40,691 bases of DNA from Chloroflexota bacterium (GCA_018657655.1 JABHWQ010000358.1:1-40691), one strand, 5' to 3'. Shown: positions 10,897 to 33,392, numbered from the stretch's first letter. Numbers and translations are program-made. Notes: generated from the sequence alone by a model not told the origin.

Positions 10897-10911
10897 TTTG
10901 AGGGGACAGCC

Positions 10912-11805
10912 TTGCACGATATTCCGCTCGTTTTGGGAACTGTACAACTTGGAGTTTCGTACGGGGTAGCCAATAAAACTGGTTGTCCTGATCAATCAAG
11001 TGCGATTTCCATTGTACGTGAGGCGTGGGAAAATGGAATTCGCGAATTCGATACAGCACAAGGGTATGGGAAAAGTGAACGTGTCTTAGGCCAAGCTCTG
11101 GAGGTATTGGGATTTGCTCACGAGGCCAGAATTGTCACCAAATTTGACCCTAATCTGGATCACTTGGATGATAGAATCATGGCTAGCGCTTTGGACAAGT
11201 CCTTGGGCAATCTTGGCCAATCGAGTCTATATGCTATGATGCTGCACCGAGAGGATTTACTTTCTATATGGGATTGCGGATTGTCCGACGTGTTGGGAGG
11301 CTTTGTAGCTAGAGGAAAGATTGAGAAAGTGGGATTTTCAGTTTACTCACCAGATAAAGCGCTTGAAGCGTTAAACACTGATGGCGTAGATATTGTACAG
11401 CTTCCAACGAACGTTCTGGATCGACGATTTGAAACCGCTGGCGTTTTTCAACTGGCAATGGAAAAGCAGAAGATAGTGTATATCCGAAGCGTGTTTCTTC
11501 AGGGTTTAATCTTGATGGAGGAGGAAGAGATTCCGGAAAGAATGGCTTTCGCGAAGCCTTTCATTCGCAGATTTGAGTCCCTGTCAAAGGAGTTGGGATT
11601 TACTCGTCGCGAATTGGCATTGGGATACATAAAGCATGGATTTCCTGGCACAAAGTTGGTATTTGGCGCTGAGCTCTCCGGACAGGTGCGAGCCAACTGC
11701 TCAAGCTGGGAAAAGGAAATCCCTGCCTCATTAGTTCCTCTCATAAGGGAAAACTTCACAGATGTCGATCATCGAGTCCTGAATCCAAGTCTGTGGTCGA
11801 AATAA
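10912..11805 (+). CDS. aldo/keto reductase family oxidoreductase
   Basis: 297 aa with a TTG start preceded by GAGGGGA. Motifs: LGTVQLG and FDTAQGYGKSERVLGQAL (AKR Asp/Tyr region). Confidence 0.8.
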   Translation: MHDIPLVLGTVQLGVSYGVANKTGCPDQSSAISIVREAWENGIREFDTAQGYGKSERVLGQALEVLGFAHEARIVTKFDPNLDHLDDRIMASALDKSLGNLGQSSLYAMMLHREDLLSIWDCGLSDVLGGFVARGKIEKVGFSVYSPDKALEALNTDGVDIVQLPTNVLDRRFETAGVFQLAMEKQKIVYIRSVFLQGLILMEEEEIPERMAFAKPFIRRFESLSKELGFTRRELALGYIKHGFPGTKLVFGAELSGQVRANCSSWEKEIPASLVPLIRENFTDVDHRVLNPSLWSK

Positions 11806-11806
11806 T

Positions 11807-12574
11807 ATGATTGCCGCCATCATTCAAGCCCGCATGACGTCGAATCGGCTGCCTGGCAAGGTAATGAAGCAAGTAATGGGGAAACCTCTGCTGGGCTATT
11901 TGGTCGAACGGCTTCGGGCTTGCAGCCATCTCGATAACGTTATCATCGCCACAACAGTGAACGCTGAAGACGATGTAATCGCAAATTATGCCAACCAGGA
12001 AAAGATGCTTGTTTGCAGGGGATCCGAACACGATGTGCTATCAAGATATTATGAAAGTGCGAAGGAATTCGGTGTTGATCATATAGCAAGAATCACCTCC
12101 GATTGCCCTCTAAGTGATCCTGCGATTGTTGATAGAACCATCAAAACGTATCTGGAAGGCAAATACGACTATGTTCATTTAGCGCCTTCTTTTGCAGAAG
12201 GGCTCGATACGGAGATTTTCTCGCTGGCGGCTCTGGAGATTGCACATGGGAAGGCACGCCTGCGTTCTGAGAGGGAGCACGTTACACTCTATTTTTACAA
12301 CAATCCCGGGGCATTCAGAAAACTGGTGATAGAGAACGAAACTGACGATGGACACTATAGAATAACGGTAGACGAACCAGAGGACTTTGAAGTTGTTAAG
12401 GCTGTGATTGAAGCGCTATATGAAAAAGATTCCATTCCCTTTAGTTTTGGAACCATAAAATCCTTCCTGGATGATCATCCGGAAATACTCCGGAAGAATT
12501 CACACATAATCAGAAATGAAGGACTGCAGATATCTTTGATCAATGATGGGTTTATAGAAGACGATGAACGTTAG
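11807..12574 (+). CDS. cytidylyltransferase, SpsF / acylneuraminate-cytidylyltransferase-like (candidate CMP-nonulosonate synthetase)
   Basis: 255 aa. Motifs: MIAAIIQARMTSNRLPGKVM...GKPLL and RITSDCPLSDP, characteristic of the SpsF/CTP_transf_3 type. Confidence 0.8.
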   Translation: MIAAIIQARMTSNRLPGKVMKQVMGKPLLGYLVERLRACSHLDNVIIATTVNAEDDVIANYANQEKMLVCRGSEHDVLSRYYESAKEFGVDHIARITSDCPLSDPAIVDRTIKTYLEGKYDYVHLAPSFAEGLDTEIFSLAALEIAHGKARLRSEREHVTLYFYNNPGAFRKLVIENETDDGHYRITVDEPEDFEVVKAVIEALYEKDSIPFSFGTIKSFLDDHPEILRKNSHIIRNEGLQISLINDGFIEDDER

Positions 12575-12721: not shown

Positions 12722-13834
12722 ATGTGTTTAGACCAAGAAGCGCCAAGTTTCAAATCCGTTATCCGCACATCCAGCACAATTTTGGTCAGAGTGGATGGTG
12801 CTCACCATTTGGGAATGGGACATGTGATCAGGTGTATTGCGCTCTGTTCTGCAATGAGACAGTGCGGAATTGGCGTCACATTTGTTATTCGAGACTATGA
12901 TGACAGAATCAGCAATCTGATTCGCACCCATGCATTTGATGTTGAGTTAGTAGACAGTCAAATCAGTCTCAAGGATGATGCAAGCCGCACGGCTGCTATT
13001 GCAGAAAAGCTCGGCGTGGATTGCATTCTGACCGACTTGAGTCACAGTGACAATCACTCACGGCTATCTGAGTATTATTCATTCTATGACATACTTCTTG
13101 AGTCCAATAGACATGTAGTTGTTGTTGATGATATTGAGAAAATTGACTTGCCGTTTGATGTCCAGATAATCCCATATTATGAGACAGAGCATCTGGATTA
13201 CATTCGGTTTGACAAGACGAAATATCTCTTGGGATGCTCCTATTTCATCGTTTCAGAGAAATTGGCTCGAGCAGCCAATTCGACCCGGGTCATAAGGCCA
13301 ATTGGAACGAGAGTTCTTGTTTCAATTGGAGGAAGTGATCCTACCAAGATGACGCCATTGGTAGCTAATGCAATTGCCAGATTGAGCCGTCCTGAAATGG
13401 AAGTGAAATTTATCTGTTGGGAAGGATTTTCCAGCGATGCCGCTCATCAAATTGAAGCTGCCATGCAGAATTACGATGGCGTATATGAATTGTGTTCAAG
13501 CCAAGATATCTCAGAATTCATGTTATGGTGCGATATTCTAGTATCTGCCGGAGGTTTAACGAAATATGAGGCTGCACTTACTGGAACACCGGATATCATC
13601 ATTTCGGGATCGGACCTTGAGATGAAGCGTGCAGATAGATTCGCCCAATCTGGTTGTGCATTCCATATCGGACACCAGGCAAATGTACATGCTGATGAAC
13701 TTTCAGAAATAATAGAACTGTTATCGGCAAACCACGATACACGGTTATCAATGTCTAACAGGGGGAAAGCTATGATTGATGGCAAAGGCACCGAAAGAAT
13801 CATAAACCAATTACCCGTGAGTTTGCCACAATGA
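12722..13834 (+). CDS. pseG: UDP-2,4-diacetamido-2,4,6-trideoxy-hexose hydrolase, PseG/SpsG family (GT-B-like)
   Basis: 370 aa. The N-terminus ILVRVDGAHHLGMGHVIRCIALCSAM matches the PseG/SpsG signature (R-x-D-x4-G-x-GH-x-x-RC). The C-terminal half has GGSDPT and SAGGLTKYEA. Confidence 0.75.
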   Translation: MCLDQEAPSFKSVIRTSSTILVRVDGAHHLGMGHVIRCIALCSAMRQCGIGVTFVIRDYDDRISNLIRTHAFDVELVDSQISLKDDASRTAAIAEKLGVDCILTDLSHSDNHSRLSEYYSFYDILLESNRHVVVVDDIEKIDLPFDVQIIPYYETEHLDYIRFDKTKYLLGCSYFIVSEKLARAANSTRVIRPIGTRVLVSIGGSDPTKMTPLVANAIARLSRPEMEVKFICWEGFSSDAAHQIEAAMQNYDGVYELCSSQDISEFMLWCDILVSAGGLTKYEAALTGTPDIIISGSDLEMKRADRFAQSGCAFHIGHQANVHADELSEIIELLSANHDTRLSMSNRGKAMIDGKGTERIINQLPVSLPQ

Positions 13835-14856
13835 AAGTCAACATCAAATTGGGAGATCGAATGGTCGGTGATGGAGAACCGACTCTCGTTATTGCCGAAA
13901 TCGGTTCAAATCACAATCAGAAGCTCTCACAAGCAAAGCAACTTATAGATGCCGCCGCCAAAGCCGGAGTTGATGCAGTCAAGTTCCAATTGTTCAAAGC
14001 TGAAGTATTGTACCCCAATAGGGATACCTACTATGACATAATGAAAGCCAATGAACTACCTCGGGAATGGGTAACAGAACTCGCAACTTACGCTAAACAA
14101 CACAATCTGCTATTTATGGCCAGCCCATTTGACTATGAAGCCATTGATATTCTCGATGAATTGGAAACTCCGGCATTGAAACTGGCCTCATCTGAAGCTG
14201 TGAACTGGCCCTTGGTACAATATGCTGCATCGAAAAAGCGCCCATTGATTGTCTCTACGGGCATGTGTGATTTGGCCGATGTATCTCAATTGGTTGAACT
14301 GGTTCGGAATACAGCGAATAACGAAGATGTCATTTTGCTTCAATGCACCGCACTGTATCCTCCAGAGCCGCGGCAAGTGAACTTGCGGGCTATGGAGACG
14401 ATGAGAAATGCTTTTCATTTGCTAATAGGCTTTTCTGACCATACACCTGGTATAACAATATCAGTGGCAGCTGTGGCAAGGGGAGCATGTATTATAGAAA
14501 AACACCTTACGTTGAATCGTGGAATGGAAGGGCCTGATCACGCATATGCACTTGAACCTGACGAGATGGGTACGTTGGTTAAGTCAATACGTACAGTAGA
14601 AGCAAGCCTCGGCTCACCAGTGAAAGATATGTTAACATCGGAAAGGTCCGTAGCAAGGAGAGAAAGCGTAACCGCAACGATTGACATTCCAAAATCCACA
14701 AAAATTACCCGAGACATGCTTGTCTGCAGTCGACCAGCTATCGGGATCAAACCTAAGTTTGTTGAAGCGGTAATCGGAAGTTCAAGCAACCAAGATATCA
14801 ACGCGGGCCAAGCCCTCACGTGGGATATGCTGAATGTGCGCTCGCGAGGAGATTGA
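13831..14856 (+). CDS. nonulosonic acid synthase, NeuB/PseI/LegI family (PEP-dependent condensing enzyme)
   Basis: 341 aa. Motifs: GEPTLVIAEIGSNHNQKLSQAKQLIDAAAKAGVDAVKFQ, FSDHTPG, IEKHLT, and a C-terminal SAF/antifreeze-like domain. ATGA overlap with the upstream gene. Confidence 0.9.
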   Translation: MKVNIKLGDRMVGDGEPTLVIAEIGSNHNQKLSQAKQLIDAAAKAGVDAVKFQLFKAEVLYPNRDTYYDIMKANELPREWVTELATYAKQHNLLFMASPFDYEAIDILDELETPALKLASSEAVNWPLVQYAASKKRPLIVSTGMCDLADVSQLVELVRNTANNEDVILLQCTALYPPEPRQVNLRAMETMRNAFHLLIGFSDHTPGITISVAAVARGACIIEKHLTLNRGMEGPDHAYALEPDEMGTLVKSIRTVEASLGSPVKDMLTSERSVARRESVTATIDIPKSTKITRDMLVCSRPAIGIKPKFVEAVIGSSSNQDINAGQALTWDMLNVRSRGD

Positions 14857-14857
14857 G

Positions 14858-15625
14858 ATGACTGAAAAGAATAGATTTGACTATCAAGGTGAGACGAAGG
14901 CTTCTGATGCCCAAATTGCCCATCGAGAGATCTTATACAAGCTCTTTCGTGAACGACCAATGCCTGACGACCAGTTACTCATCGTCCAAGGTCTCTATAT
15001 GCGAAGTTCAGCGCTAGCCAAGATACTGTTCCTCAACGAAATGTATGAACTGATTCTGGGTATCCCAGGCATCATCGTTGAGTTCGGTTGTTGGTGGGGG
15101 CAGAACGTGATTGTACTTGAGAACCTGCGCGCAATTTATGAACCTTTCAATCAAAGCCGCCGCATTGTTGGATTCGATACCTTCAGTGGTTATACATCCA
15201 TATCTGAGAAAGACCATCCGAGCAATACGATTAAATTTGGCGGTTACAATGTCACTGAATGCTATCGATCCTATTTAGAAGAGTTGATAGATTATCACGA
15301 GCAGAACAACGTTCTGGCAAACGTAAAAAAACACCGGGTGATAGAAGGGGATGTTGTGGAGACGGTGCCAAAGTTCTTTACGCAAAATTCGGAGACAGTT
15401 GTGGCATTGGCCTATTTTGATATGGCACTATACGAGCCCACAAAAGTATGCATGGAAACCATAAAGCCTCATTTGATACCCGGGAGTGTTATTATGCTGG
15501 ACGAGTTCAATTGTCCGGAATATCCAGGCGAAACCATTGCTTTCAGGGAAATCTTTGGACATATGTCATACGATATTCGGTGCTCCAGATTCATGAATGA
15601 CCGGACTTTTATAATAATCAGATAA
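14858..15625 (+). CDS. TylF/MycF-like class I SAM-dependent (O-)methyltransferase
   Basis: Motifs: GIIVEFGCWWGQNVI...RIVGFDTFSGY and EGDVVETVP...ALAYFDMALYEPT...PGSVIMLDEF, following the TylF pattern. I chose ATG 14858 (TGAGATG junction, GGAG upstream) over the ORF-maximal 14834. Confidence 0.65.
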   Translation: MTEKNRFDYQGETKASDAQIAHREILYKLFRERPMPDDQLLIVQGLYMRSSALAKILFLNEMYELILGIPGIIVEFGCWWGQNVIVLENLRAIYEPFNQSRRIVGFDTFSGYTSISEKDHPSNTIKFGGYNVTECYRSYLEELIDYHEQNNVLANVKKHRVIEGDVVETVPKFFTQNSETVVALAYFDMALYEPTKVCMETIKPHLIPGSVIMLDEFNCPEYPGETIAFREIFGHMSYDIRCSRFMNDRTFIIIR

Positions 15626-15643: not shown

Positions 15644-16327
15644 ATGAAAGAAATAATCATTTTCGGCACCGGAGAAATCGGGCAATTGGCATACTACTAT
15701 TTCACACACGACAGCCCTTATCAAGTCGCTGCATTTACCGCGGACAGTGAATTCATACAGGAACAGACATTGATGGGTCTTCCTGTGACACCCTTTGAGA
15801 ATATAATTGACACCTATCCACCGGAATATTTCGATATGTTTGTCGCTTTAAGCTACCGCAAAATGAATAGTATCCGAGCTGAAAAGTATAACGCAGCGAA
15901 AACCAAAGGTTACAAACTGGTTAGTTATGTGTGCTCCAAATCTGTACTCTGGGATGATCTGGCCATAGGTGATAATTGCCTCATTCTGGAAAACCAGACA
16001 ATTCAACCTACAGTTAGAATAGGATCTAACGTAATGATCTGGAGCGGAAATCATCTGGGTCATGGGAGTACTATCAACGATCACACTTACATCAGCAGCC
16101 ATGTATGTATCTCCGGGCACGTGGAGATTGGTACCAATTGCTTTGTTGGAGTGAACGCCGCCATTAAAGATTTCGTTAGAATCGGGAATGGCGTGTTTGT
16201 ATCCATGGGCGCTTTGGTTACCAAGGACATCGAAGACGGTGCCGTTGTTTTGGGATCGAGGGGAACAATACTTCCCTCTGACTCAGAGACAGCCACTAGC
16301 ATGAAAAGAATGTATTTCGGAATGTGA
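15644..16327 (+). CDS. NeuD/PglD-family sugar N/O-acetyltransferase (Rossmann-like N-domain plus left-handed beta-helix)
   Basis: 227 aa. N-terminus IIIFGTGEIGQLAYYY, then hexapeptide repeats (IGDNCLI, IGSNVMI, IGTNCFVGVNAAI, IGNGVFV). Confidence 0.8.
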   Translation: MKEIIIFGTGEIGQLAYYYFTHDSPYQVAAFTADSEFIQEQTLMGLPVTPFENIIDTYPPEYFDMFVALSYRKMNSIRAEKYNAAKTKGYKLVSYVCSKSVLWDDLAIGDNCLILENQTIQPTVRIGSNVMIWSGNHLGHGSTINDHTYISSHVCISGHVEIGTNCFVGVNAAIKDFVRIGNGVFVSMGALVTKDIEDGAVVLGSRGTILPSDSETATSMKRMYFGM

Positions 16328-16395: not shown

Positions 16396-17298
16396 ATGAA
16401 ATGGATCAAACAAGGATTGATAGTTCAACCACAATATGGTCTTGACTGGATGGTAACTCATGCAATGGTTCCTGTAGCCATGCACCTGCAAGATTATATT
16501 TATCGCATATACTTCTCAGGCAGAGATAAACATAATCGATCACATATTGGCTATGTTGAAATTGATATCAGAGAGCCCAGAAAAATTCTGAGGATTTCTG
16601 AACATCCCAGTCTCGGTTTGGGTGATTTAGGTTGTTTTGATGACAATGGCGTAACACCTTCATGGATTGTAGATCATAATAATAAACGATACCTGTTTTA
16701 CATCGGATGGAACATGGGATCAACCACTCGGATGGGATTGATCGCAGGGCTCGCGATTAGCTATGACGGAGGCACTTCTTTCCATAGAGTATCACGAGCA
16801 CCAATCCTTGAAAGAACTGATTCCGAACCATATTCATTGATGACCGGACCTTGTGTCATAATTGAAAATGATATCTGGCGAATGTGGTATGTTTCCGGTG
16901 TAGAATGGGCTAACAAAGATATGCCCCGATATAACATCAAGTATGCAGAATCAAAGGACGGAATCACATGGAACAGGAGTGGTCTAACTTGCATCGATTT
17001 TAAAGGGAAAGAGAATGCCCTAGCACGCCCATGCGTCCTCAAGGAAAACTCTATTTACAGGATGTGGTATTCATATAAAGGGGAGTACTATCGCATCGGT
17101 TATGCAGAATCCCCAGATGGTTTTGTATGGGAAAGAAAGGATGATGAAGTCGGTATAGACGTCTCGCCATCAAGTTGGGACTCGGAGATGATCGAATATG
17201 CATTTGTATTCGATCATAGAGATACGAAATATATGCTCTACAATGGCAATGATTATGGCACCGGTGGAATCGGTCTGGCCATTATGGAGGACGACTGA
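16396..17298 (+). CDS. five-bladed beta-propeller protein (GH32/43/68-like fold), function unknown
   Basis: 300 aa with internally repeated blade signatures: IYRIYFSG, IWRMWYVSG...IKYAESKDGITWNR, IYRMWYSY...IGYAESPDGFVWER, and KYMLYNGN. RBS AGGAG upstream. Confidence 0.5.
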   Translation: MKWIKQGLIVQPQYGLDWMVTHAMVPVAMHLQDYIYRIYFSGRDKHNRSHIGYVEIDIREPRKILRISEHPSLGLGDLGCFDDNGVTPSWIVDHNNKRYLFYIGWNMGSTTRMGLIAGLAISYDGGTSFHRVSRAPILERTDSEPYSLMTGPCVIIENDIWRMWYVSGVEWANKDMPRYNIKYAESKDGITWNRSGLTCIDFKGKENALARPCVLKENSIYRMWYSYKGEYYRIGYAESPDGFVWERKDDEVGIDVSPSSWDSEMIEYAFVFDHRDTKYMLYNGNDYGTGGIGLAIMEDD

Positions 17299-18012
17299 TT
17301 GAAACGAGTTGCAATTATGCAACCTACGTATCTCCCATGGCTTGGTTATTTTTCACTGATGGATCAGGTCGATACGTTTGTGTTCTTAGATTCGGTTCAA
17401 TTCAACAAACGCTCGTGGCAGCAGAGAAACCGAATAAAGACACCTCGAGGGGAACTGATGTTAACTGTACCAGTAAAAACCAAGGGCAGACGATACCAGA
17501 AATTGTGTGAAGTGGAAGTAGATAATGGACAAACATTTCAACACAAGCACTTGAAAGCCATGGAATACAGCTATTCCAAAGCATTCTATTTCTCCGTCTA
17601 TTGGGACGATATCCACCAAACACTGGGGCAGGATTATCGGTACCTAGTTGACTTGAACATTGCCATGATTGAGGAATTCAGAACCAAACTCGGTATTAAA
17701 GTTGAGTTACTCAGAAGTTCCTCATTGAATACTGAAGGGCGCAATGTTGAACTTCTTATAAACCTCTGCAGGTTACTCGGTGCAGACTCGTATCTGTCAC
17801 CCAAAGGTTCGAGCGTATACATCGAAGAAAATAATCTATTTCAAAAAAACGGTATCGAATTGCTATATCCAGACTACATTCATCCTCACTATCGGCAACT
17901 ATATAATAGCTTTGCACCCTATATGTCAATACTGGACCTGCTTATGAACGAGGGCGATAGGAGCCTCGATATAATAAGAATAGGACAAAACTGTATCAAT
18001 GAAAATCGTTAG
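17299..18012 (+). CDS. WbqC-family protein (uncharacterised glycan-tailoring family)
   Basis: The TTG start, preceded by GGAGGA, gives MKRVAIMQPTYLPWLGYFSLMDQVDTFVFLDSVQFNKRSWQQRNRI. This is the hallmark WbqC N-terminus. Confidence 0.75.
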   Translation: MKRVAIMQPTYLPWLGYFSLMDQVDTFVFLDSVQFNKRSWQQRNRIKTPRGELMLTVPVKTKGRRYQKLCEVEVDNGQTFQHKHLKAMEYSYSKAFYFSVYWDDIHQTLGQDYRYLVDLNIAMIEEFRTKLGIKVELLRSSSLNTEGRNVELLINLCRLLGADSYLSPKGSSVYIEENNLFQKNGIELLYPDYIHPHYRQLYNSFAPYMSILDLLMNEGDRSLDIIRIGQNCINENR

Positions 18013-19000
18013 GGCAAATTCTCTGGATTTCAATACACTCTGGAAGTGTTTGTTTGTGCAGCGTGATTTTCAACATCCACTTTATCAACCGTGTAACATC
18101 AAGTATTATGAAGCATATGTTCCTGAATCACAGTTTGAAGATTGTTCCTTTGTAGTTGAAGATAACGGATCGCCATTAGTCGGATTGCGTATGACCGCAA
18201 GTTCTACCCCTGAAGGTGATCGACAGCTTTCAGGATTCTGGCTACCTATTTTGTATTTGGAAAACAGAGATATCGAATATGCGAGATTTGGCAAATGCTA
18301 TAAGCTCGTGAAAGCCGAACTGCGCGACATCCAGAATGCCCACTCGATAACAAGAATCATTTATCAGGATTTCCTGGATGATGGGAAACTTTCATTTCTA
18401 GGAAAACACCTGCTGGACCAAGGTGGGCAAGCCACGCCCTATTTCACCCAGATAGTCGATCTATCATTGTCACATGACTCCTTACACAGTCAAATCCGCA
18501 AGAGCTACAAAAGCCTGATCAATCAGGGATCCAAAAACCTGACCATATTTGTGATAGACAATACAACAATCACACCTGAAGATATAGAGAATTTCCGGTT
18601 GTTACATCTTGAGGCATCAGGAAGAGAAACACGATCTCGGCATTCATGGCAGGTCCAGTATGAAATGGTCTGTCACAAAGAGGCATTTATCGTTTTCGGG
18701 TATCTTGAGGGAATATTGGTGACAGCTGGATTGTTTCCCTACAGTCCGAGGTGCTGTTTTTACGGAGTATCTGCTTCAAAAAGGGATTTGTTCGAAAAGC
18801 CTTTGTCACATGCGGTAATCTGGACTGCGATGCTCCACGCCAAAAAGCAGGGACTGGTGTTTTTTGAGCTTCCAGAAGTCCTCTTTCCAAATGAAGGAGA
18901 GCCTTTTCCCACTGAAAAAGAAATTGGCATTAGCACTTTCAAACGTGGTTTTGGGGGGCATACTCAAGTGAGGCTAAATATTCGCTGGCAGCTACATTAG
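17999..19000 (+). CDS. FemAB-like (tandem GNAT-fold) acyl/aminoacyl-transferase family protein
   Basis: 333 aa. Motifs: YFTQIVDLSLSHDSLHSQIRKSYKSLINQGSKN and the C-terminal GISTFKRGFGG, resembling the Fem/MurM-type pattern. 14-nt overlap with the WbqC gene. Confidence 0.55.
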   Translation: MKIVRANSLDFNTLWKCLFVQRDFQHPLYQPCNIKYYEAYVPESQFEDCSFVVEDNGSPLVGLRMTASSTPEGDRQLSGFWLPILYLENRDIEYARFGKCYKLVKAELRDIQNAHSITRIIYQDFLDDGKLSFLGKHLLDQGGQATPYFTQIVDLSLSHDSLHSQIRKSYKSLINQGSKNLTIFVIDNTTITPEDIENFRLLHLEASGRETRSRHSWQVQYEMVCHKEAFIVFGYLEGILVTAGLFPYSPRCCFYGVSASKRDLFEKPLSHAVIWTAMLHAKKQGLVFFELPEVLFPNEGEPFPTEKEIGISTFKRGFGGHTQVRLNIRWQLH

Positions 19001-19026
19001 TATGCCACTGAAAACGGATAAGAAAC

Positions 19027-20031
19027 ATGATCACCATTTATCCAACTCCTTCATCTGCGAATACCGACAGTACCCCGGTCTTTTTTGACGAGTTGAGAGA
19101 AACTATTGGATTAAACATGACACCTTTTTCATGCGGTCGCGCAGCGATGCTCTATGGCCTGCGTGCGCTTGGTTTGGGACGTATGGATCACATCCTTGTT
19201 CCGCCTTTTTTGGGTCATTGCGTCCTTTCCACAGTGTCAAAGACAGCATTCCCAACCATGACGCCAGTCAGTGCTGTAAAGGCGATTCTTGTCTATCACC
19301 AATTCGGCTATCCTCAGAAAATTGATGCCATCGAGAAGACTGCCCAGTATAATGGGTGGATAATACTAAACGATTGTGCCAATACATTCCTCACTTTGTA
19401 TAGACAGAAATCTGTTGTGGATTGGGGTGACTTTTCTGTTCTTAGTTTTTCTAAAATATATCCGTGTGTCCTCGGGGGTGCTCTTACATCACGCAATGAT
19501 CGATTATTAAACAGGATCAAAGGTGATTACACTTTCATGGCCGAACGCCATACAGCACGCGCTAATATGGCCTATTCGGTTATGGATAAGGCCTCCAAAG
19601 GACTCTTGGGAGACGATACTGGATTTGAAGTTGATGCTGTGTACGGTTATTTGCCAGAAGTTGTGGCGTTCCCCATAGAAGCATTCCGTGCATTGCCAGA
19701 TACCCGGCAAGAAATTAAAAAGGATGCTAATCATCGCAAAAGATTACTCGCCATAGTCACTTCATACTTTCCCGAAAGAGTTCCAGAGTGCTCTGAGTGT
19801 GAGGTGATCCCTTTCGCCATCCCGATTGCCAGCGATCCGTCACAAATGGAATCCATATCTGAAAGAATTCAGCGGCAAATGGATGTTGAAGTTCCAATCC
19901 TGCATTTTGATTTCGCCCGAAATATGCTAGAGCCTGACTATCGAAAAGCGCTGGTAATCGGTTGCCATGTGGGCTGGAATGAAGACATGGTTACCAGTAT
20001 TTGTGAAATCATGCGAGAGAGTATGCCATGA
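19027..20031 (+). CDS. divergent DegT/DnrJ/EryC1-like PLP-dependent enzyme (fold type I)
   Basis: 334 aa. SCGRAAMLYGLRALGLGRMDHILVPPF, ILNDCANTF (Asp region) and GDFSVLSFSKIYPCVLGGAL (candidate PLP Lys) follow the DegT order but are strongly diverged. Confidence 0.6.
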   Translation: MITIYPTPSSANTDSTPVFFDELRETIGLNMTPFSCGRAAMLYGLRALGLGRMDHILVPPFLGHCVLSTVSKTAFPTMTPVSAVKAILVYHQFGYPQKIDAIEKTAQYNGWIILNDCANTFLTLYRQKSVVDWGDFSVLSFSKIYPCVLGGALTSRNDRLLNRIKGDYTFMAERHTARANMAYSVMDKASKGLLGDDTGFEVDAVYGYLPEVVAFPIEAFRALPDTRQEIKKDANHRKRLLAIVTSYFPERVPECSECEVIPFAIPIASDPSQMESISERIQRQMDVEVPILHFDFARNMLEPDYRKALVIGCHVGWNEDMVTSICEIMRESMP

Positions 20032-21197
20032 ATCAATATGAAGTCTTTGTTGAAAGTGGTGAAATCAACCGAGAGGAAATTGTAGATTTTCTTTCACGGA
20101 TATATGGGCCCAATTACCATGATGCCCGCATAGTGCAAGGGACAACGATTGACAAGGAGCCCAGCACTAAACCAGAAAACTTCATACTTGCGCGTTCGAT
20201 GGGGGGAGAACTGATAGGAATCGTGCGTATTGTCGAGCGAACCATACTTGTCGATGGGATAGGTCTCAGTTGTGGTGGCATCTCCTCAGTTAGCGTGCAT
20301 CCGCAATGGAGAAACCAAAATGTGGCATCGGATTTGATGAACAAAGCCATAGAAGCTATGATTTCTCGCAATATGGACCTGTCAATTCTTCACGGAAGAC
20401 GTGCTGTCGATGGGTTGTACCTCCCATTCGGTTACTATGGGATTGGCCGTTATATCGATTTGGAAATCATCTCATCACCTCCCTCCCGAGAAACTGCCTT
20501 ACATGTGGTCCCGTTTGAAGAAGACCACCTCCAAACATGTATGCAACTCTACAATACTACTTACCAGAACCTGAGCGGATCATTTGTTAGAGATCAGCTT
20601 GTTTGGAGGTTCCTGCTGGCACGCACGGAAGTTAGTGGCGGTATGACTCGCGTAATGACGTGTATGTCGGATAATAATCCCGTTGGGTATCTTGTCTTAT
20701 CCGGGGAGAAATTAGTTGAGATTGCCATACCAGCAGAGTATTTCGCTTCTGTACCAAATTTGCTCTACACCCTAAACATCCAGTCAATTTCTGTGCATCC
20801 GCGCCACCCTCTGTATATCTTCTTGCGGGCAAACATGAACACGATGCAACGAGAAAGGTTTGCCCTTGATGGAGGATATATGGCCAGATTCTTGAATCCG
20901 GGGAAATTACTCAACAAACTAGCCCCAGTTCTTGCAGACAGAGCAAAAGCCGTGGGAGTATCTGACGATGTAATTCGGATACTGAATCATGAAATACACT
21001 TAGGCAACGGGCAAGTCTCAAAGACTCAGGAAAGAGACGATATCACATTTGACAAGATCGAAACCGCAATTCAATTGGTGCTGGGAGTAATTCAACCTGA
21101 AGACATTCTGGGTATACACTGGACGAGCAAAAACCCAAGGATCACCCATCTGTTTCCAAACCTTCACTATCACACCAGCGCCTGGGATGAGGTTTAA
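20028..21197 (+). CDS. GNAT acetyltransferase with long C-terminal extension (Eis-like architecture)
   Basis: 389 aa. GNAT motif A-like ISSVSVHPQWRNQNVASDLMNKAIEAM, followed by a ~230-aa extension as in Eis-type enzymes. ATGA overlap with the upstream gene. Confidence 0.6.
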   Translation: MNQYEVFVESGEINREEIVDFLSRIYGPNYHDARIVQGTTIDKEPSTKPENFILARSMGGELIGIVRIVERTILVDGIGLSCGGISSVSVHPQWRNQNVASDLMNKAIEAMISRNMDLSILHGRRAVDGLYLPFGYYGIGRYIDLEIISSPPSRETALHVVPFEEDHLQTCMQLYNTTYQNLSGSFVRDQLVWRFLLARTEVSGGMTRVMTCMSDNNPVGYLVLSGEKLVEIAIPAEYFASVPNLLYTLNIQSISVHPRHPLYIFLRANMNTMQRERFALDGGYMARFLNPGKLLNKLAPVLADRAKAVGVSDDVIRILNHEIHLGNGQVSKTQERDDITFDKIETAIQLVLGVIQPEDILGIHWTSKNPRITHLFPNLHYHTSAWDEV

Positions 21198-21203: not shown

Positions 21204-23171
21204 ATGCCGCTCAAGTTATCAAAACCAGGCGAAATTCGTTATAGGTGTGTTGTTTTTGAGACATTCGACCATGCTAACAAGAGTCTGGTGAAAAAATACA
21301 CTGACAACTCAGTGTCTGTTTTTGCCATCGAACCTTGCGTTGCTTACCATAGAATCAAAGGAGACATCACAGGATTCCCCAACGATTTTCCAGACTATGC
21401 ACAACAGCTTATTGATAAAGGGGCAATTCAATTGTTACTCGCATCCTCATTTGACGGAAAGTCGATTTATGCACAAGCATTGGACAAAGCCGTCGATGTC
21501 ATCGAGCCAGTCTTTCCGGTATACAAGGAAAATCATAAACAACTCATTAAATATGTTTGTAATACCTTGAATTCCCCCGACGCTGAAAAGGCATTTAAGA
21601 AATCCTTGTGTGAAAGATTAGCAACTTTCTATTCAATTAACATCCTTTTGCATCGGCTTAACAAACTACTTGGATATGGTCCGATTCTGACATATCCAGA
21701 TGCGAATATCAGATCATATATAGCCCTCAAAAAGCTACTGCTACAAAGTGAACAAGAGGTTTTTGAACACGATGACATTCAATTACCGACACGCATCCAT
21801 ATCTCCAGCTTCTGTGAAAATCTAAAAAGGAATCTAATCATCAATGCTCAATTATTGGCTCAAACCTCACTCAGCGTACTTTTAGGCTGGAAAAAGAATT
21901 CCTCAAGAAAAAGTATCCAACAATATACCTATGGCATAACGATAGTTGGCTCTCGGCAATTAGAAGATAATCGTCGTGGACCTGATTTTATTATTGATGA
22001 TAAGAAAATCGCGGGACGAAGTGTTGTCTATTTTCCTCGCTTTGATTTGACTACAGATCAGATCAAACGAGTGTCGGATATGCCAGGTACTATTTGGAAT
22101 CTACCGAAAGCCAAAAAATTCTTTTCTCATCCTGGCAAATGGAAACATCTTCTTTGGCTTTCGGTACGTCGCAACTTTGTGCGAAACGCTGAAGAAATGA
22201 ACATTGCTTCGGAGGCAGTTTTCCACTATTTTTGTTGGCTAAAAGTGTTAAATAGCATCAACATTCGCCATTTCATCACTCATGGTGATTTTGGAACAAG
22301 TCATATTGGACGCAATATTGCCTTAAAACAAGCTGGAATACAAACATGGTATTTCACGGATAGCATGAATTGCGGCAGTAATATGCAAGAAAAGGGTAAC
22401 AGAATGCGTCACCCCTTCTGGACATACTTGCATTACGACCGATTTGTTACTTGGAATACCCTTCTCGCGGAGTACTTCAGGTCTCATCCAGGTTCTTTTC
22501 AGAAAGCCGATATAGTAGGATGCCTTTGGAGTGACCATATAGTAAAAGGATTTCATGAAAAGAACCAAGCAAACATCCCCAGCCCAAAAACCACAGATCC
22601 CCTTTTCTTTATCGTGGTATTTGATACTACCTATTCAAGAAATGGCTTGGTCTCATATGCTGAAGGCATAGCTTTTGCCGAACATATTATTGACTTGGCC
22701 AATGAAAAACAAGGCATCCATGTTATCCTGAAAGAAAAAAAACACCGTAGTATCCATCGCATACTGGACCCAAAGCTCGGACCAGAGTTGCTCAGTTTGT
22801 ATAATAAAATGGATGCCCACCCCAAAATAACAGTCTATTTAAATGAGTCTGATGCGTCCGAATTGATTTCTATTTCAGATATGGTGATCTCATCCCCTTT
22901 CACCTCAACAACCTTTGAAACCTTGAGCGCTAACAAACCAGCTATCTGGCATGATCCAATGGGACTCTACAAACACACACCATATGGAATGGTCGGTGGG
23001 ATAACAACTCACAGCTATATTGAACTGAAGAAAAAAATGCTGGAAATAATGGAAATGAACTCTCCCCATTATAAAAACCCTTTGCCACCGGATTCCTCAT
23101 TAATAGACCCATATCGAGATGGGAAAGCAATCGATCGATTTAGGGACCTTCTTACGTATGAACAGGGTTAA
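21204..23171 (+). CDS. large 'PFTS-motif' polysaccharide biosynthesis protein; C-terminal GT-B/TagF-like domain (putative glycosyl- or glycosylphosphotransferase)
   Basis: 655 aa. The C-terminal ~160 aa read HVILKEKKH...AHPK...ASELISISDMVISSPFTSTTFETLSANKPAIW. This contains a literal PFTS motif and the nucleotide-sugar-binding half of a GT-B fold. The N-terminal ~450 aa have no motif I recognise. Confidence 0.55.
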   Translation: MPLKLSKPGEIRYRCVVFETFDHANKSLVKKYTDNSVSVFAIEPCVAYHRIKGDITGFPNDFPDYAQQLIDKGAIQLLLASSFDGKSIYAQALDKAVDVIEPVFPVYKENHKQLIKYVCNTLNSPDAEKAFKKSLCERLATFYSINILLHRLNKLLGYGPILTYPDANIRSYIALKKLLLQSEQEVFEHDDIQLPTRIHISSFCENLKRNLIINAQLLAQTSLSVLLGWKKNSSRKSIQQYTYGITIVGSRQLEDNRRGPDFIIDDKKIAGRSVVYFPRFDLTTDQIKRVSDMPGTIWNLPKAKKFFSHPGKWKHLLWLSVRRNFVRNAEEMNIASEAVFHYFCWLKVLNSINIRHFITHGDFGTSHIGRNIALKQAGIQTWYFTDSMNCGSNMQEKGNRMRHPFWTYLHYDRFVTWNTLLAEYFRSHPGSFQKADIVGCLWSDHIVKGFHEKNQANIPSPKTTDPLFFIVVFDTTYSRNGLVSYAEGIAFAEHIIDLANEKQGIHVILKEKKHRSIHRILDPKLGPELLSLYNKMDAHPKITVYLNESDASELISISDMVISSPFTSTTFETLSANKPAIWHDPMGLYKHTPYGMVGGITTHSYIELKKKMLEIMEMNSPHYKNPLPPDSSLIDPYRDGKAIDRFRDLLTYEQG

Positions 23172-24069: not shown

Positions 24070-25698
24070 ATGAAAACAATTTTGTACTATGTGCAAGGAC
24101 CGGTACATCTCCGCAATCTTGGTTTAATTGCGAATGAGATGCCGGGTTGGAAATTCCGTATGGTCTACGAAGCGGGAGTCTCACACTTTGATTCAAAGGT
24201 ACTATCTGATTTACCTTTCGAGAAGGTGCCCTTAAAAAAGGATAGAATCCCCCCAGAAGTATGGGACGGGAATGTTCGAGCCATCATCTTTTCAGCTATC
24301 CAACCGCGTCAGGGTCCTCTTAATCTTATAAAATCCGCATTGTTACGCCAAATTCCTATGGTTGCTATTGAGGAATCAAATCAAATTGCCTTAAATCTCG
24401 GTATTTCTTCGAATAACAATTATTTAGCCCCCACAGAACATGTGCTAGTAGCATCGCAAATCGAGCGTGATTATCTAGTTGACATGGGAGTTCCTGGACA
24501 TCGAGTAAAATGTACTGGTTGGCCATTCTATACAGGCCCAACCGGGAAAACCAATCAGACTGAAAAACGTCATATGAAGGAACGTTTTGGCCTTGATCCA
24601 GACCGCCCTGTTGCCGCATTGGCATTGACAGCATATGGCGATTCTGGAGAAAACCATGAAAAGCGCCGGCAACAACTATATTTGGTCGCACAAGGGATGC
24701 CGGACGAGTACCAGTTGGTAGTTAAAGCGCATCCAATAGAGAATTTGAGCACTGTGACGCCAATTGTACAGAGCATTATACCCAAAGCAACTGTGCTCGA
24801 AAGCAATGTTCCTATCGCAGATTTAATCACTGCTTCCGACGTCCTGATCAATAGAGGGGTTTCTCAGGCAGGAATAGAATCACTTCTACAGGGAGTTCCA
24901 GTAGTCGTTCTATCAATTGGGCACTGGACACCGTTCCATGAGGATGCTCCCGATGTGGTGGTACAAAACGGGGAAGAACTTAACAGAGCCTTGGTAAGGT
25001 TGATAACGGAAAGTAACCCCATGCATGCTTATGACAATTTCTTAAAAAGGCATGTTCCTTATTCCCCAACAGAAGCAAGACGTTTTACATGCCAGTCCAT
25101 TGATGAGATTGCAACGAGAGGTTTGTTGGATCCAAATCCCAAAGAACAATGGCTCGATTTGGCTCTGTTTCAAGCTTGGAAATTAAAAGCAAATATCGCA
25201 CTTGAATCCCTGAAATTATGTTCAAACAGCGGGTACAGCAGCATATCTCAATCATTGAGTGATCTTGTGCAATGCCGCGCCAGCCGGCACCAATTGCATG
25301 AATTGCGACATTGGTCACAGGGAACTTTCCGGGAAGAAATTCTACGTTCTCTATGGATTTCTCAGTTTTATCAAACGAAAAGCGACATTAGTGAAGAGGA
25401 CTTGGTATGGATGGATACTTATCCCCCTCAAAAGAACACTCCTCTTCACTTTGACTGCGTTTGGCGCTGGATTGATGTTCTGATTCGATCAGGTTATTAT
25501 GATAGGGCGGAGCAATTGGCTCAGAAGATGCACCATGAATATAGTTACAATCCGATTATGCATAGCCTTCCGTTTTGGATTGAGCGCTACAGAGCAAATC
25601 GATACGGCCGTATCCAATATAAAATGTGGCTGAGATGGATGCAAATTCGTCCCAGGCTATCACAACTCCATGTACAATTGAAGGAGCTGCGGGCCTAG
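24070..25698 (+). CDS. GT-B fold (TagF/KpsS/sialyltransferase-like) putative transferase with Trp-rich helical C-terminal extension
   Basis: 542 aa. Motif LVVKAHPIEN...IADLITASDVLINRGVSQAGIESLLQGVPVVVL (K-x-HP plus the S/T loop of CMP/CDP-donor GT-B enzymes). The last ~180 aa are helical and W/R-rich. Confidence 0.5.
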   Translation: MKTILYYVQGPVHLRNLGLIANEMPGWKFRMVYEAGVSHFDSKVLSDLPFEKVPLKKDRIPPEVWDGNVRAIIFSAIQPRQGPLNLIKSALLRQIPMVAIEESNQIALNLGISSNNNYLAPTEHVLVASQIERDYLVDMGVPGHRVKCTGWPFYTGPTGKTNQTEKRHMKERFGLDPDRPVAALALTAYGDSGENHEKRRQQLYLVAQGMPDEYQLVVKAHPIENLSTVTPIVQSIIPKATVLESNVPIADLITASDVLINRGVSQAGIESLLQGVPVVVLSIGHWTPFHEDAPDVVVQNGEELNRALVRLITESNPMHAYDNFLKRHVPYSPTEARRFTCQSIDEIATRGLLDPNPKEQWLDLALFQAWKLKANIALESLKLCSNSGYSSISQSLSDLVQCRASRHQLHELRHWSQGTFREEILRSLWISQFYQTKSDISEEDLVWMDTYPPQKNTPLHFDCVWRWIDVLIRSGYYDRAEQLAQKMHHEYSYNPIMHSLPFWIERYRANRYGRIQYKMWLRWMQIRPRLSQLHVQLKELRA

Positions 25699-25714: not shown

Positions 25715-26506
25715 ATGAAAGCAGTTCTATTAACGAGAAAATCTCCTCCTCAGTGCTACTGTGCCAACATGTTATTTCAGAGTGGTATTATATCTAGCAC
25801 TGTGTTAGATATACCACTTTCAAAGAAGAGGACTACTACCTTCTGCAACGCAGTTTTGGGATATATTGTTCACCCTATAGTTGCTATTCGTAAAGCCAGA
25901 AATGTTGTTTTTCATGAAAGGTTCTTTGGGGATCGAGAATATCACAACAATAGGATATTGCGACACAACTATAAAACCATTGATCCAGAACTTGCAGCAG
26001 TCTCATTTAATGATATCAACGATGAAGATTGTGTATCCTGGATAGGCCAATATAAACCTGATTTTGTTTTTGTTTTTGGAACTTGCTTGATTAGACGCAG
26101 ATTACTTGAAGCTTTTCAATGTCCTGTTGTGAACATGCATTGGGGATGGTCACCAGACTATAGAGCCGAAGGCATTGTTTCAGCTCTTGCAACGGGAGGT
26201 TCGAAGGACCTCGGTGTGACTGTACATCTTTTAGACATAAGTGTTGATGGTGGAGATATTCTCTATCAGGAACGAATTGTGATTGATATACACGATAATT
26301 TCTATTCAATCGGACTGAAACTTGCATTGCGTGGAACTGAGTTGTTTATCCGTAGCTACCAGAATTTTGAAAAAGATGGATCACTTGCAGGAATGAAGCA
26401 GGATACCTCACGAGGGAAGTTGTATTCGGGTGAGTTTATGAGACGTCATCCACAGTTGTACTATCAGGCTTGGAAGAATCTTTCCGCAGAACAAGGTAGA
26501 TTGTAA
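25715..26506 (+). CDS. formyltransferase-family protein (Formyl_trans_N-like; candidate sugar N-formyl/acyl transferase)
   Basis: 263 aa. Motifs: PDFVFVFGTCLIRRRLLE...VVNMHWGWSPDYRAEG (N-x-H retained, canonical SLLP replaced by GWSP) and GVTVHLLDISVDGGDILYQ (catalytic Asp region). It lacks the FMT C-terminal domain. Confidence 0.7.
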   Translation: MKAVLLTRKSPPQCYCANMLFQSGIISSTVLDIPLSKKRTTTFCNAVLGYIVHPIVAIRKARNVVFHERFFGDREYHNNRILRHNYKTIDPELAAVSFNDINDEDCVSWIGQYKPDFVFVFGTCLIRRRLLEAFQCPVVNMHWGWSPDYRAEGIVSALATGGSKDLGVTVHLLDISVDGGDILYQERIVIDIHDNFYSIGLKLALRGTELFIRSYQNFEKDGSLAGMKQDTSRGKLYSGEFMRRHPQLYYQAWKNLSAEQGRL

Positions 26507-26509
26507 ATA

Positions 26510-27481
26510 GTGTTTAAAAACCTCGCGAAGAAGTGTATCCGATCCAAACCGGTTCAAGCATTGCTTGCTGCTGATATTGTTTTTAACCAAGCCTGCAAGA
26601 ACTCGGTTGTAATTCTTCTATACCATGATGTTTCGGAACATCCTGGTGAATTTAGTCGCATATATAATCTGAATGTACCACCAAATGTATTTGATCAGCA
26701 AATAAAAATACTAAGCAAATTATTCAACGTCATTACACCACAGCAATTAATTGCGGGAGAATATGAAACACCGGCAGCTCTGATTACCTTTGACGATGGA
26801 ATGGTAGGTTATTTCGAAAATGCTGTTCCCATTATGAAGCTTTATCAGTGCCCATCAACAGTCTTTCTGAATATGGGCCCGGTAAATGGAGATATCTTTT
26901 GGGCGGGATTAGTAACCTATCTTTGCGAATATGATCAGCGCTTTCTGGAAGCTCTAATAGACTATTATAAAGGAGCGGTTCCAAAACCGCACCATCTATA
27001 CTGTGCACGTCAAATGGTCGAGGAGTATTTGGCTGAGAATGACCAAAACAGTATATATCAAGCTGCTCGGAACTTCTACGGTGGATTCGCTACAAGACAA
27101 CACCTCGATTCGGTAGATAATGATGAGTTGGTATATTTTGGCAATCATCTCTACAATCACTATAACGCTACCATGCTATTTGATAACGAATTGAAGGAAT
27201 CTTACCTAAAAAATCGAGACGAACTTTTACAATTTAATAATAGTGTGGAGCTTTTTAGTTATCCCTTTGGCCAACCAGGTAGCTGCTACAACCAGAATAC
27301 AGATTCTTTGATCTCCGATTGTGGATCTCAGAAACTATTCACAGCTAAACCAGCCGTCAATTCGGATATGACGCGAAACATAATGCATAGAATTCCGTTA
27401 ATCGGTGATATGTGTTTTGAACAGGACATCAAGTCTGTTGTATCCTATTGGAAACTGAGGAGATTTATCGATCGTGACTAG
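26510..27481 (+). CDS. polysaccharide deacetylase (NodB/CE4 family)
   Basis: 323 aa with a GTG start after AAGGTAG. Motif 1 is ALITFDDGMVGY. Downstream His-containing motifs include YFGNHLYNHY. Confidence 0.75.
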   Translation: MFKNLAKKCIRSKPVQALLAADIVFNQACKNSVVILLYHDVSEHPGEFSRIYNLNVPPNVFDQQIKILSKLFNVITPQQLIAGEYETPAALITFDDGMVGYFENAVPIMKLYQCPSTVFLNMGPVNGDIFWAGLVTYLCEYDQRFLEALIDYYKGAVPKPHHLYCARQMVEEYLAENDQNSIYQAARNFYGGFATRQHLDSVDNDELVYFGNHLYNHYNATMLFDNELKESYLKNRDELLQFNNSVELFSYPFGQPGSCYNQNTDSLISDCGSQKLFTAKPAVNSDMTRNIMHRIPLIGDMCFEQDIKSVVSYWKLRRFIDRD

Positions 27482-27692
27482 TTGAATTTAAACATAGATC
27501 GCAAAGTGCTATAATTATTATCCAATGAGAGCCATGTTTTAAATTAGGGTCAAACGAACGTGATATAACAATCGAGAGTCATATGGTCGTCTCAACCATC
27601 CCAAAAGATATTGTGGGAGTTACAATTACACAAATGATGTACAGGAACTCGAGGATCTGTTTATCCAAATTTATGTTAAGGCGCAATTGTTG

Positions 27693-29746: not shown

Positions 29747-29760
29747 GGGAGGGAGATTCA

Positions 29761-30360
29761 GTGTCCTACGTTAGTGAATATTTGGATGAAGTCAAGAAAG
29801 TTGTCGATGGAATAGACCAGTCCGTGATAGATAAGATGGTCGATCTGCTTGTCGGTATTAGAGAGAGCGGAGGTCGCCTTTTCTTTCTTGGAGTAGGTGG
29901 TGGCGCGGGTAATGCATCCCACGCTGTCAATGACTTTCGCAAAATCGCGGGAATTGAATCCTACTCACCGAGCGATAATGTCTCTGAGCTAACTGCACGG
30001 ACAAACGATGACGGGTGGGACACGGTATTTGTGGAATGGCTCAAAGGTTCCAGGCTCAATCAGAAAGACGGGGTATTCGTCTTCTCTGTTGGTGGTGGAG
30101 ATGCAGAACGAAACATCAGTGCAAACCTGGTTCGTGCGCTAGAATATGCCCAAACTAAGGGGTCGAGAATAATGGGCATCGTTGGTCGTGACGGTGGGTA
30201 TGCCGGCAAGATAGGAGATGCATGCCTGATTATACCAACAGTCAACCCAAATACAATAACCACTCATACTGAAGCCTTCCAGAGTGTTATCTGGCATCTG
30301 GTAGTGTCTCATCCGAAGGTACAGGTTTCAGAAATGAAGTGGGAATCAACGACGGAGTGA
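29761..30360 (+). CDS. SIS-domain sugar-phosphate isomerase, GmhA-like (single domain, no CBS)
   Basis: 199 aa with a GTG start after a strong RBS (GGGAGGGAG). Motifs: GGRLFFLGVGGGAGNASHAVNDF, VFSVGGG, RIMGIVGRDGG. Confidence 0.75.
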   Translation: MSYVSEYLDEVKKVVDGIDQSVIDKMVDLLVGIRESGGRLFFLGVGGGAGNASHAVNDFRKIAGIESYSPSDNVSELTARTNDDGWDTVFVEWLKGSRLNQKDGVFVFSVGGGDAERNISANLVRALEYAQTKGSRIMGIVGRDGGYAGKIGDACLIIPTVNPNTITTHTEAFQSVIWHLVVSHPKVQVSEMKWESTTE

Positions 30361-30364
30361 GCAA

Positions 30365-31048: not shown

Positions 31049-31056
31049 CATTAACT

Positions 31057-32511: not shown

Positions 32512-32539
32512 TTCGTAGGCCGGATAGGGTATATACGGA

Positions 32540-33319: not shown

Positions 33320-33392
33320 AACATTTGAAGCGCCATTTGGACATTATTCATTTCATTCCAATCAGAAAACATATCAACTGAAGGTCATTATA

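Follow-up and report, generated by a model that had tools for sequence, protein, structure and literature searches.

A Possible Junction of Two Tailoring Cassettes in a Nonulosonate-Type Gene Cluster of a Chloroflexota Bacterium

Positions 16396-21197 of a 40,691-nucleotide stretch of DNA from a Chloroflexota bacterium (GCA_018657655.1, JABHWQ010000358.1:1-40691; the whole stretch is called the window below) carry five closely spaced genes, which encode a β-propeller protein, a WbqC-family protein, a FemAB-like protein, a DegT-like pyridoxal phosphate (PLP) protein and an Eis-like acetyltransferase of the GNAT type. A preliminary description of the window took these genes as one module that tailors a nonulosonic acid. 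Comparison with other genomes leads us to propose, tentatively, that they are the junction of two tailoring cassettes that are inherited independently, each of which reaches past this interval. Cassette A consists of a NeuD/VioB-type acyltransferase (the first gene), the propeller and WbqC, sometimes together with a TylF-like methyltransferase. Cassette B consists of the FemAB-like protein (the first gene), a PLP_IMCC1989-like protein, the Eis-like GNAT and a PFTS-motif protein. The locus that contains them is possibly a surface-glycan cluster of about 35 kb on a single strand, built on a pseudaminic-acid-type nonulosonate pathway, a view that we hold with some reserve.

Nonulosonic acids with alanyl, glycyl-type, acetimidoyl, glyceroyl and other N-acyl groups are surface antigens, and for most of these groups we know of no installing enzyme. 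The present analysis separates two cassettes that can be studied independently, the FemAB-like/PLP/GNAT set being specific to nonulosonates and the WbqC/propeller/NeuD set being general and spread over hundreds of species. It also shows that WbqC is without structural precedent, and it names specific candidates for the acceptor and the donor with which enzyme assays could be set up. It is important to point out that this is not a new system. Each of the genes can be placed in a named family or close to one, both cassettes are spread over hundreds of species, and the interest that remains lies in the enzymology and not in the particular locus.

Gene Organization

The five genes are the following:

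16396-17298, + strand: propeller gene, 300 amino acids
17299-18012, + strand: WbqC gene, 237 amino acids, TTG start
17999-19000, + strand: FemAB-like gene, 333 amino acids
19027-20031, + strand: DegT-like PLP gene, 334 amino acids
20028-21197, + strand: Eis-like GNAT gene, 389 amino acids

All five open reading frames (ORFs) of the preliminary description were reproduced with their coordinates, and its three junctions were confirmed, namely the TGA/TTG junction between the propeller and WbqC genes at 17296-17301, the 14-nucleotide overlap of the WbqC and FemAB-like genes at 17999-18012, and the ATGA overlap of the DegT-like and GNAT genes at 20028-20031. A GGAGG sequence is located 8 nucleotides 5' of the TTG start of WbqC. 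The gap between the FemAB-like and DegT-like genes is 26 nucleotides, and that between the GNAT and PFTS genes is 6 nucleotides. Independent metagenome contigs with an identical FemAB-like protein carry the same five products in the public gene calls, including the 237-residue WbqC that starts at TTG.

The genes are part of an unbroken run on the + strand that extends from 364 to 40505 of the window, and matches to consensus promoters and terminators between 12000 and 25000 are at chance level only. The five genes had been thought to follow the nonulosonate core directly. This was found not to be the case, since two genes intervene after NeuB, those of the TylF-like methyltransferase (14834-15625) and the NeuD-type acyltransferase (15644-16327).

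Distribution of the Two Cassettes

Loci were collected from one genome per species, in separate scans that started from the FemAB-like, propeller and PLP proteins. The propeller scan gave 304 relatives, and the neighbourhood counts refer to the best 80 of these 304. For the 47 FemAB-like loci, NeuB was counted among the neighbours within 10 kb. The PLP-side scan used a 4-member subgroup as the query, because the 14-member alignment was too divergent. In addition, a scan with a degenerate DNA motif provided 112 WbqC loci, among the matches listed.

The propeller gene keeps very constant company. In 76 of the 80 loci a NeuD-type gene is present and adjoins it, 72 have WbqC and 61 a DegT aminotransferase. 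Most of these loci hold a four-gene set of WbqC, NeuD, propeller and DegT. NeuB, on the other hand, is found in only 16 of the 80, and a FemAB-like gene in only 5. The WbqC sample gives a similar picture, with DegT as the immediate neighbour, in the same orientation, in 49 of the 112 loci listed, a propeller-like gene in 26, NeuB in 6 and a FemAB-like gene in none; Campylobacter is not represented among these listed loci. Cassette A, which occurs in at least 304 species, is thus a general amino-sugar device that usually stands beside a DegT aminotransferase and without NeuB, and it is not specific to nonulosonates. Its setting in most genomes may be a 6-deoxy-aminohexose cluster that lacks NeuB, which we put forward as a possibility only slightly short of an even one. 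As an example, Vibrio bivalvicida has RmlB, RmlA, WbqC, a hexapeptide-repeat acyltransferase, the propeller, methyltransferases and DegT in a deoxythymidine diphosphate (dTDP)-aminosugar context. When a cassette A from Vibrio was compared by BLASTN with every complete Escherichia coli genome, in search of an annotated wbqC of O121, no match was obtained.

The TylF-like methyltransferase often joins cassette A as an additional gene. Homologues with 57-65% identity are found near the NeuD-type and propeller genes in three of our loci (L054, L059 and L063), and in the first two of these they lie between the two genes. More distant homologues are present in L056, L067, L158, L195, L237 and L258.

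The FemAB-like gene has other neighbours. NeuB is present in 34 of the 47 loci, a class-III aminotransferase in 33 and a PseC-type gene in 32, and in 12 loci PseC immediately precedes the FemAB-like gene. The PLP gene occurs in 15 loci (14 when counted with hidden Markov models), directly downstream in 9 of them, while the Eis-like GNAT is found in 7, always together with the PLP gene. The numbers are low for PFTS (4/47), WbqC (11/47) and the propeller (5/47). Of the 10 loci found from the PLP side, 7 have a FemAB-like gene next to the PLP gene, the remaining three being short contigs. PFTS follows directly after the PLP/GNAT genes in L005, L006, L014 and L134, and stands two genes further in L009. 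Cassette B is thus specific to nonulosonate loci, and the two halves of what had been described as one module are separate in most genomes.

Cassette A

The assignment of the 16396-17298 product as a β-propeller, made in the preliminary description, is borne out by a 26-sequence family profile, which matches a GH130 phosphorylase in the PDB with E=6.5e-12 and also GH117, GH43 and GH32 proteins. The scores of the single sequence are below every cutoff, that is, those of GH130 (20.3 bits vs 32.2), GH43 (17.2 vs 26) and the mannobiose phosphorylase model. These results support a predicted five-bladed propeller of the GH43/GH130/GH117/GH32 superfamily, with a likeness at the level of the fold and no membership in a glycosidase family. 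The protein also differs from these enzymes in that it is embedded in nucleotide-sugar biosynthesis and has conserved motifs of its own. The invariant residues are found in an FDD motif at residues 81-83 (F81 and D82) and in the WDSEM part of a WDSEMIEY motif at residues 261-268. The N-terminus has no hydrophobic signal-like stretch, and the protein is cytoplasmic. Its family comprises at least 7827 protein clusters, labelled as hypothetical or as GH43/DUF377.

For WbqC, the assignment is very clear (PF08889, E=2.1e-74, 250.5 bits vs a gathering threshold of 21.3, model positions 1-216 of 218), and we found no biochemically defined reaction for the family in the literature, in agreement with what had been noted before. 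No solved relative was found in the PDB by sequence, and the AlphaFold model, with a predicted local distance difference test (pLDDT) score of 92, has no PDB fold match better than E=0.07. In the structure comparison, a similar fold is shared only by five unnamed viral proteins. The residues kept throughout 190 diverse members are Q8, P13, G16, Y17, F18, D25, D31, W40, R43, N44, P58, Y165, Y198 and D213.

We propose that cassette A acts on an amine or an N-acetyl group of a pseudaminic acid precursor or product. It would modify the amine made by the aminotransferase, possibly to an amidine, as has been proposed for PtmG of Campylobacter. The literature confirms the earlier statement that PtmG (Cj1324) is required for acetimidoyl legionaminic acid, and genetic evidence similarly shows that the methyltransferase PtmH (Cj1325/6) is needed for the N-methyl-acetimidoyl form. 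By analogy, PtmG and PtmH would be the only genetic precedent for cassette A. In the flagellin glycosylation island of C. jejuni/coli, PtmG, reportedly of WbqC type, has a methyltransferase and a NeuB-type synthase as its neighbours, and the parallel extends to PtmH in that a methyltransferase accompanies cassette A in the window as well. The Campylobacter pathway is, however, a legionaminic one, while that of the window is pseudaminic. To our knowledge, the island has no propeller gene.

Another option is that WbqC itself is the transferase that would attach an acyl, aminoacyl or imidoyl group to the amine provided by the aminotransferase, without any remodelling of an N-acetyl group, and with the propeller and NeuD-type proteins as optional helpers. 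The commonest partner of WbqC is a sugar aminotransferase, since DegT is its direct neighbour in 49 of the 112 loci listed, many of which have no detected NeuD- or propeller-like gene nearby. About half of the WbqC-bearing FemAB-like loci likewise lack the propeller. Furthermore, a Streptomyces operon combines WbqC with a prolyl-tRNA synthetase (ProRS) paralogue, a dedicated transfer RNA (tRNA) and an LmbE-type deacetylase (PMC10404621). These associations suggest that WbqC may load a free amine directly. However, the WbqC fold matches no solved structure, and metabolomics in Campylobacter has been interpreted as conversion of CMP-Leg5Ac7Ac to CMP-Leg5Am7Ac (CMP, cytidine monophosphate). We consider this option somewhat unlikely, although it survives better than the other alternatives discussed below.

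We have also considered, and dropped, a possible link between WbqC and the N-acetylglycine of E. coli O121; a literature search found no paper that describes the genes for N-acetylglycyl-viosamine in O121.

Cassette B

The earlier FemAB-like assignment of the 17999-19000 product holds, both by sequence, where it matches TIGR04421 (FemAB_IMCC1989) with E=3.7e-38, and by structure. The 11 best PDB matches of its AlphaFold model (pLDDT 96) are all aminoacyl-tRNA-dependent transferases, namely FemX, Sba18/Sbb17, FemA and Staphylococcus aureus FemX, with Foldseek E-values from 3e-14 to 4e-11. The best match is FemX 1ne9, with E=3e-14 and a template-modelling (TM) score of 0.70. Next after these 11 come coenzyme A (CoA)-dependent tandem GNATs that transfer acyl groups, and aminoacyl-phosphatidylglycerol synthases. 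With FemX of Weissella viridescens and the FemABX proteins (1ne9, 4ii9, 1lrz, 6snr) the protein has in common the tandem-GNAT fold, at a length of about 330 residues and without a coiled-coil insert, and the streptothricin-type peptide synthases Sba18/Sbb17 (9wqy, 9wqx) are also fold relatives. The identity to FemABX is only 12-15%, the context in the window is a nonulosonate pathway and not the cell wall or an antibiotic, and the donor is a prediction.

The family has at least 1096 clusters at 50% identity (E<=1e-30). Its consensus shows no R/Q-x-x-G-x-G/A acetyl-CoA motif in the second GNAT domain, and the family instead has an invariant Lys within a C-terminal FKRGFGG motif. This resembles the Fem-family motif that holds Lys305 of FemX, which we presume to be the equivalent residue; the equivalence stays an assumption because the sequence searches against solved structures matched nothing.

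The match to TIGR04421 is nearly full-length, with 131.6 bits vs a curated cutoff of 250, and the window protein therefore appears to represent a clade related to FemAB_IMCC1989 and not a member of it. TIGR04421, TIGR04422 (PLP_IMCC1989) and TIGR04417 (PFTS_polysacc) form a trio that has already been curated as NCBIfam models from the marine gammaproteobacterium IMCC1989, without an experimentally defined function. The window has the same three protein types in the same order, and loci of the type of L006, L009, L010 and L014 resemble the founding cassette. The DegT-like protein of the window also scores below the trusted cutoff of its model (46.4 bits vs 75), which suggests that it and the FemAB-like protein are sister clades of the NCBIfam models. 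A PF27889 match is on record for an identical product of the DegT-like gene, and its protein can be placed, as judged from these scores, near the already defined PLP_IMCC1989 family. The PFTS protein, in turn, scores above the TIGR04417 cutoff and is probably the glycosyltransferase of cassette B.

The DegT family assignment was upheld, with a PF01041 match that is confined to the core (model positions 113-196 of 360) and thus not full-length. The preliminary description had considered the active site to be strongly diverged, which the alignment with four PseC proteins and 13 relatives contradicts. The PLP-binding Asp (NDCAN) and the Schiff-base Lys (SFSK) are kept in all 14 relatives aligned, at the positions that ED(A/G)xHA and SFHPVK occupy in the four PseC proteins. 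The N-terminus lacks the segment that precedes the core in PseC proteins, and two residues are missing ahead of the Lys. The differences are located in the N-terminus and the substrate-binding parts.

The Eis-like GNAT assignment is likewise upheld, as far as the layout is concerned. The N-terminal part matches PF13527 (Acetyltransf_9) with E=5.7e-15, and a family profile matches 2ozg with E=1e-17 and 3n7z with E=8e-13, the latter over residues 11-335, such that a three-domain layout of the Eis type fits. Length and domain layout are shared with Eis and Eis-like GNATs (2ozg, 3n7z and Eis2 6rft), from which the window protein differs in the identity of about 20% or less, in its acetyl-CoA motif and in its context of sugar biosynthesis.

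We now turn our attention to the chemistry that these proteins could perform. The FemX-fold enzyme would put an amino acid on a free amine of the nucleotide-linked precursor. The FemX fold points to aminoacyl-tRNA as the most likely donor, and the repeated arrangement of PseC followed by FemAB-like suggests as the acceptor the C4 amine of the uridine diphosphate (UDP)-linked sugar, which is made by PseC and would become N7. Next, the PLP enzyme would bind the new α-amino group as an aldimine, via its intact Lys, and epimerise or transaminate it, after which the GNAT would cap the amino group by N-acetylation and PFTS would transfer the finished sugar. The composition of cassette B is nested (FemAB-like always, PLP sometimes, GNAT only with PLP), which fits an amine-bearing group that is installed first and optionally processed afterwards. 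The succession of tRNA-dependent aminoacylation and N-acetylation that had been suggested earlier is, as a model, plausible.

A soluble UDP-linked acceptor is used by FemX of W. viridescens. A functional parallel is provided by VimA/VimE, which belong to the Wbp/Vim pathway of Porphyromonas gingivalis and Tannerella forsythia. An amino acid is amide-linked there to a sugar amine, and VimA determines, as cross-species complementation has shown, whether Ser or Gly is placed on the 2-amine (PMC7468200); in that pathway, a 2,3-diamino uronic acid serves as the acceptor once it has been deacetylated. A FemAB-superfamily gene is also part of the type B flagellin glycan locus of Clostridioides difficile (PMC5207246). 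In the literature we found no paper that links FemAB-type proteins to nonulosonic acids.

A more far-reaching proposal joins three parts. The FemAB-like protein would be the missing aminoacyl-tRNA-dependent enzyme for N-aminoacyl nonulosonates, the truncated DegT-like protein would act on a sugar-bound amino acid, for example by L-to-D epimerisation or by transamination, and WbqC with the propeller would carry out a new amine modification on nucleotide sugars. We regard it as unlikely that all three hold together. For the second part, we know of no reaction of this type in the DegT family.

A number of observations weigh against the proposed two-cassette chemistry. What is shown are gene structure, folds, conserved residues and co-occurrence, from which all substrates, the tRNA donor and the sequence of the steps are inferred at a tentative level. 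For cassette A, none of the WbqC invariants of the 190 members is a Cys, His or Lys, nor do they form a nucleotide-binding loop, and they therefore give no support for a specific amidine-forming chemistry. The likeness to PtmG, moreover, is drawn from its description as a WbqC-type protein. For cassette B, the FemAB-like protein has no match to the Pfam FemAB family (PF02388) or to any other Pfam family, and searches of the PDB by sequence, with the single sequence, a 23-sequence profile and the C-terminal half, did not find a solved Fem protein. The acetyl-CoA motif of the window GNAT is degenerate, with RNQNVA at residues 102-107 vs RGxGxS in most relatives. Finally, many FemAB-like loci in Bacteroidota keep a PseH-like GNAT, fused to or beside PseG, from which it follows that the FemAB-like protein is an extra acyltransferase whose amine is not fixed by the context. 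A replacement of PseH by the FemAB-like protein was considered as well, and it is ruled out by these same loci.

Two further observations of this kind are also the basis of an alternative for the FemAB-like protein, in which it is an acyl-CoA-dependent tandem GNAT that would install a hydroxybutyryl- or glyceroyl-like acyl group and not an aminoacyl group from tRNA. There is neither a tRNA gene nor an aminoacyl-tRNA synthetase gene in the window, and acyl-CoA-dependent tandem GNATs (2wpw/2wpx, 7q3a and VipF) also match the model, with E-values of about 1e-10 to 1e-11. PF13480 is moreover detected on a few members of the family. However, as described above, the 11 best structural matches are all aminoacyl-tRNA-dependent, with FemX having the highest TM score, and the family has the invariant Lys of FKRGFGG and, in the second GNAT domain, no acetyl-CoA motif. 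The dependent PLP enzyme and the N-acetyltransferase as partners also suit an acyl group that carries an amine. We therefore judge the acyl-CoA option to be unlikely, slightly more so than a WbqC transferase.

Two side observations concern the FemAB-like gene in other genomes. The locus L134 (Thermodesulfovibrionia) keeps the order WbqC, FemAB-like, PLP, GNAT, PFTS. Its FemAB-like gene (L134:5992-7005) encodes a protein only 25% identical to that of the window, while the neighbours are 43-63% identical, except for a divergent PFTS (23%). This pattern suggests that the FemAB-like lineage was swapped there, perhaps with a change of amino-acid specificity. In Deltaproteobacteria bacterium TL4 (L005:6370-10160, on the same contig as L133), two FemAB-like ORFs, one of them truncated, have a short WbqC fragment between them and stand upstream of GNAT, PLP and PFTS genes.

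Alternative Readings of the Whole Block

The original reading takes the five genes as one module whose members act in sequence to rebuild one N-acyl group, at C5 or C7 of the nonulosonate. It draws on the tight coupling of the genes, including the 14-nucleotide overlap of WbqC and FemAB-like, and on the recurrence of the gene order in L134. The counts given above argue against it from three sides, since the FemAB-like gene is rare or absent in the propeller and WbqC loci (5 of the best 80 of 304, and 0 of the 112 listed), and WbqC and the propeller are each confined to a minority of the FemAB-like loci. In addition, L006 and L010 have kilobases of DNA between the two halves, whose order also differs. 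We consider a single module improbable and prefer the junction of two cassettes.

That the block acts elsewhere, on the second keto-acid (octulosonate-type) sugar encoded at 27687-35873 or on peptidoglycan precursors, is very improbable: a pathway with a KdsB-like cytidylyltransferase does lie downstream in the same gene run, and classical Fem enzymes do act on peptidoglycan precursors, but NeuB is present in 34 of the 47 FemAB-like loci, joined by PseC, genes of the KdsB-like pathway are rare there (HpcH in 2, HAD in 1, and KdsB-like in 5 with partial coverage wherever reported), and mur or fem neighbours were seen in none of them. The peptidoglycan role was rejected on this genomic context.

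Surrounding Genes

The pathway genes around the five are the following:

5539-6519, + strand: PseB-like dehydratase
6516-7454, + strand: second short-chain dehydrogenase/reductase (SDR)
7430-9583, + strand: RmlD-like reductase fused to PseC (PseC model 493 bits, above cutoff)
9580-10896, + strand: class-III aminotransferase, glutamate-1-semialdehyde aminomutase-like
10912-11805, + strand: aldo/keto reductase
11807-12574, + strand: SpsF-like cytidylyltransferase
12722-13834, + strand: PseG-like protein
13831-14856, + strand: NeuB
14834-15625, + strand: TylF-like S-adenosylmethionine-dependent methyltransferase (PF05711, E=5.8e-6)
15644-16327, + strand: NeuD/PglB/VioB-type left-handed β-helix sugar N-acyltransferase (TIGR03570, 178 bits vs cutoff 160.8)
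21204-23171, + strand: PFTS-motif polysaccharide biosynthesis protein (TIGR04417, 130.3 bits vs cutoff 100)
34180-34953, + strand: KdsB-like cytidylyltransferase (above NCBIfam cutoffs)

Apparently the same fusion of an RmlD-like reductase and PseC is found at L138:668-2890, with 84% query coverage, where it stands directly 5' of a PLP_IMCC1989-like gene. The following three genes (9580-12574), those of the class-III aminotransferase, the aldo/keto reductase and the SpsF-like protein, are present in 33, 24 and 24 of the 47 FemAB-like loci, respectively. The same trio is listed in the lipopolysaccharide locus of Legionella pneumophila Sg6/Sg12.

Downstream of cassette B, a 542-residue ORF (24070-25698) has, like the PFTS protein (21204-23171), weak C-terminal similarity to BFO_1060-type glycosyltransferases, which suggests that the two are candidate nonulosonate transferases. 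It is followed by a formyltransferase and then a CE4 polysaccharide deacetylase in the interval 25715-27481. A 2026 preprint on Kuenenia describes a deacetylase and a formyltransferase in a nonulosonate cluster, together with de-N-acetylated and N-formyl CMP-nonulosonates.

The second keto-acid sugar pathway occupies 27687-37341 of the same gene run. It contains a GFO-type oxidoreductase, a methyltransferase, a SIS isomerase, a transaldolase/FSA-type aldolase, an HpcH aldolase, a HAD phosphatase, two SDRs, the KdsB-like cytidylyltransferase, a 2-hydroxyacid dehydrogenase and a B12-binding radical enzyme of the S-adenosylmethionine class. At the left edge of the window (364-2842) there are two acyl-CoA dehydrogenase genes, one of which matches the model of the glutaryl-CoA dehydrogenase Acd (NF045552, GlutCoADH_Des) with full score. 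The short name of this model gives a hint of a Desulfobacterota-like host.

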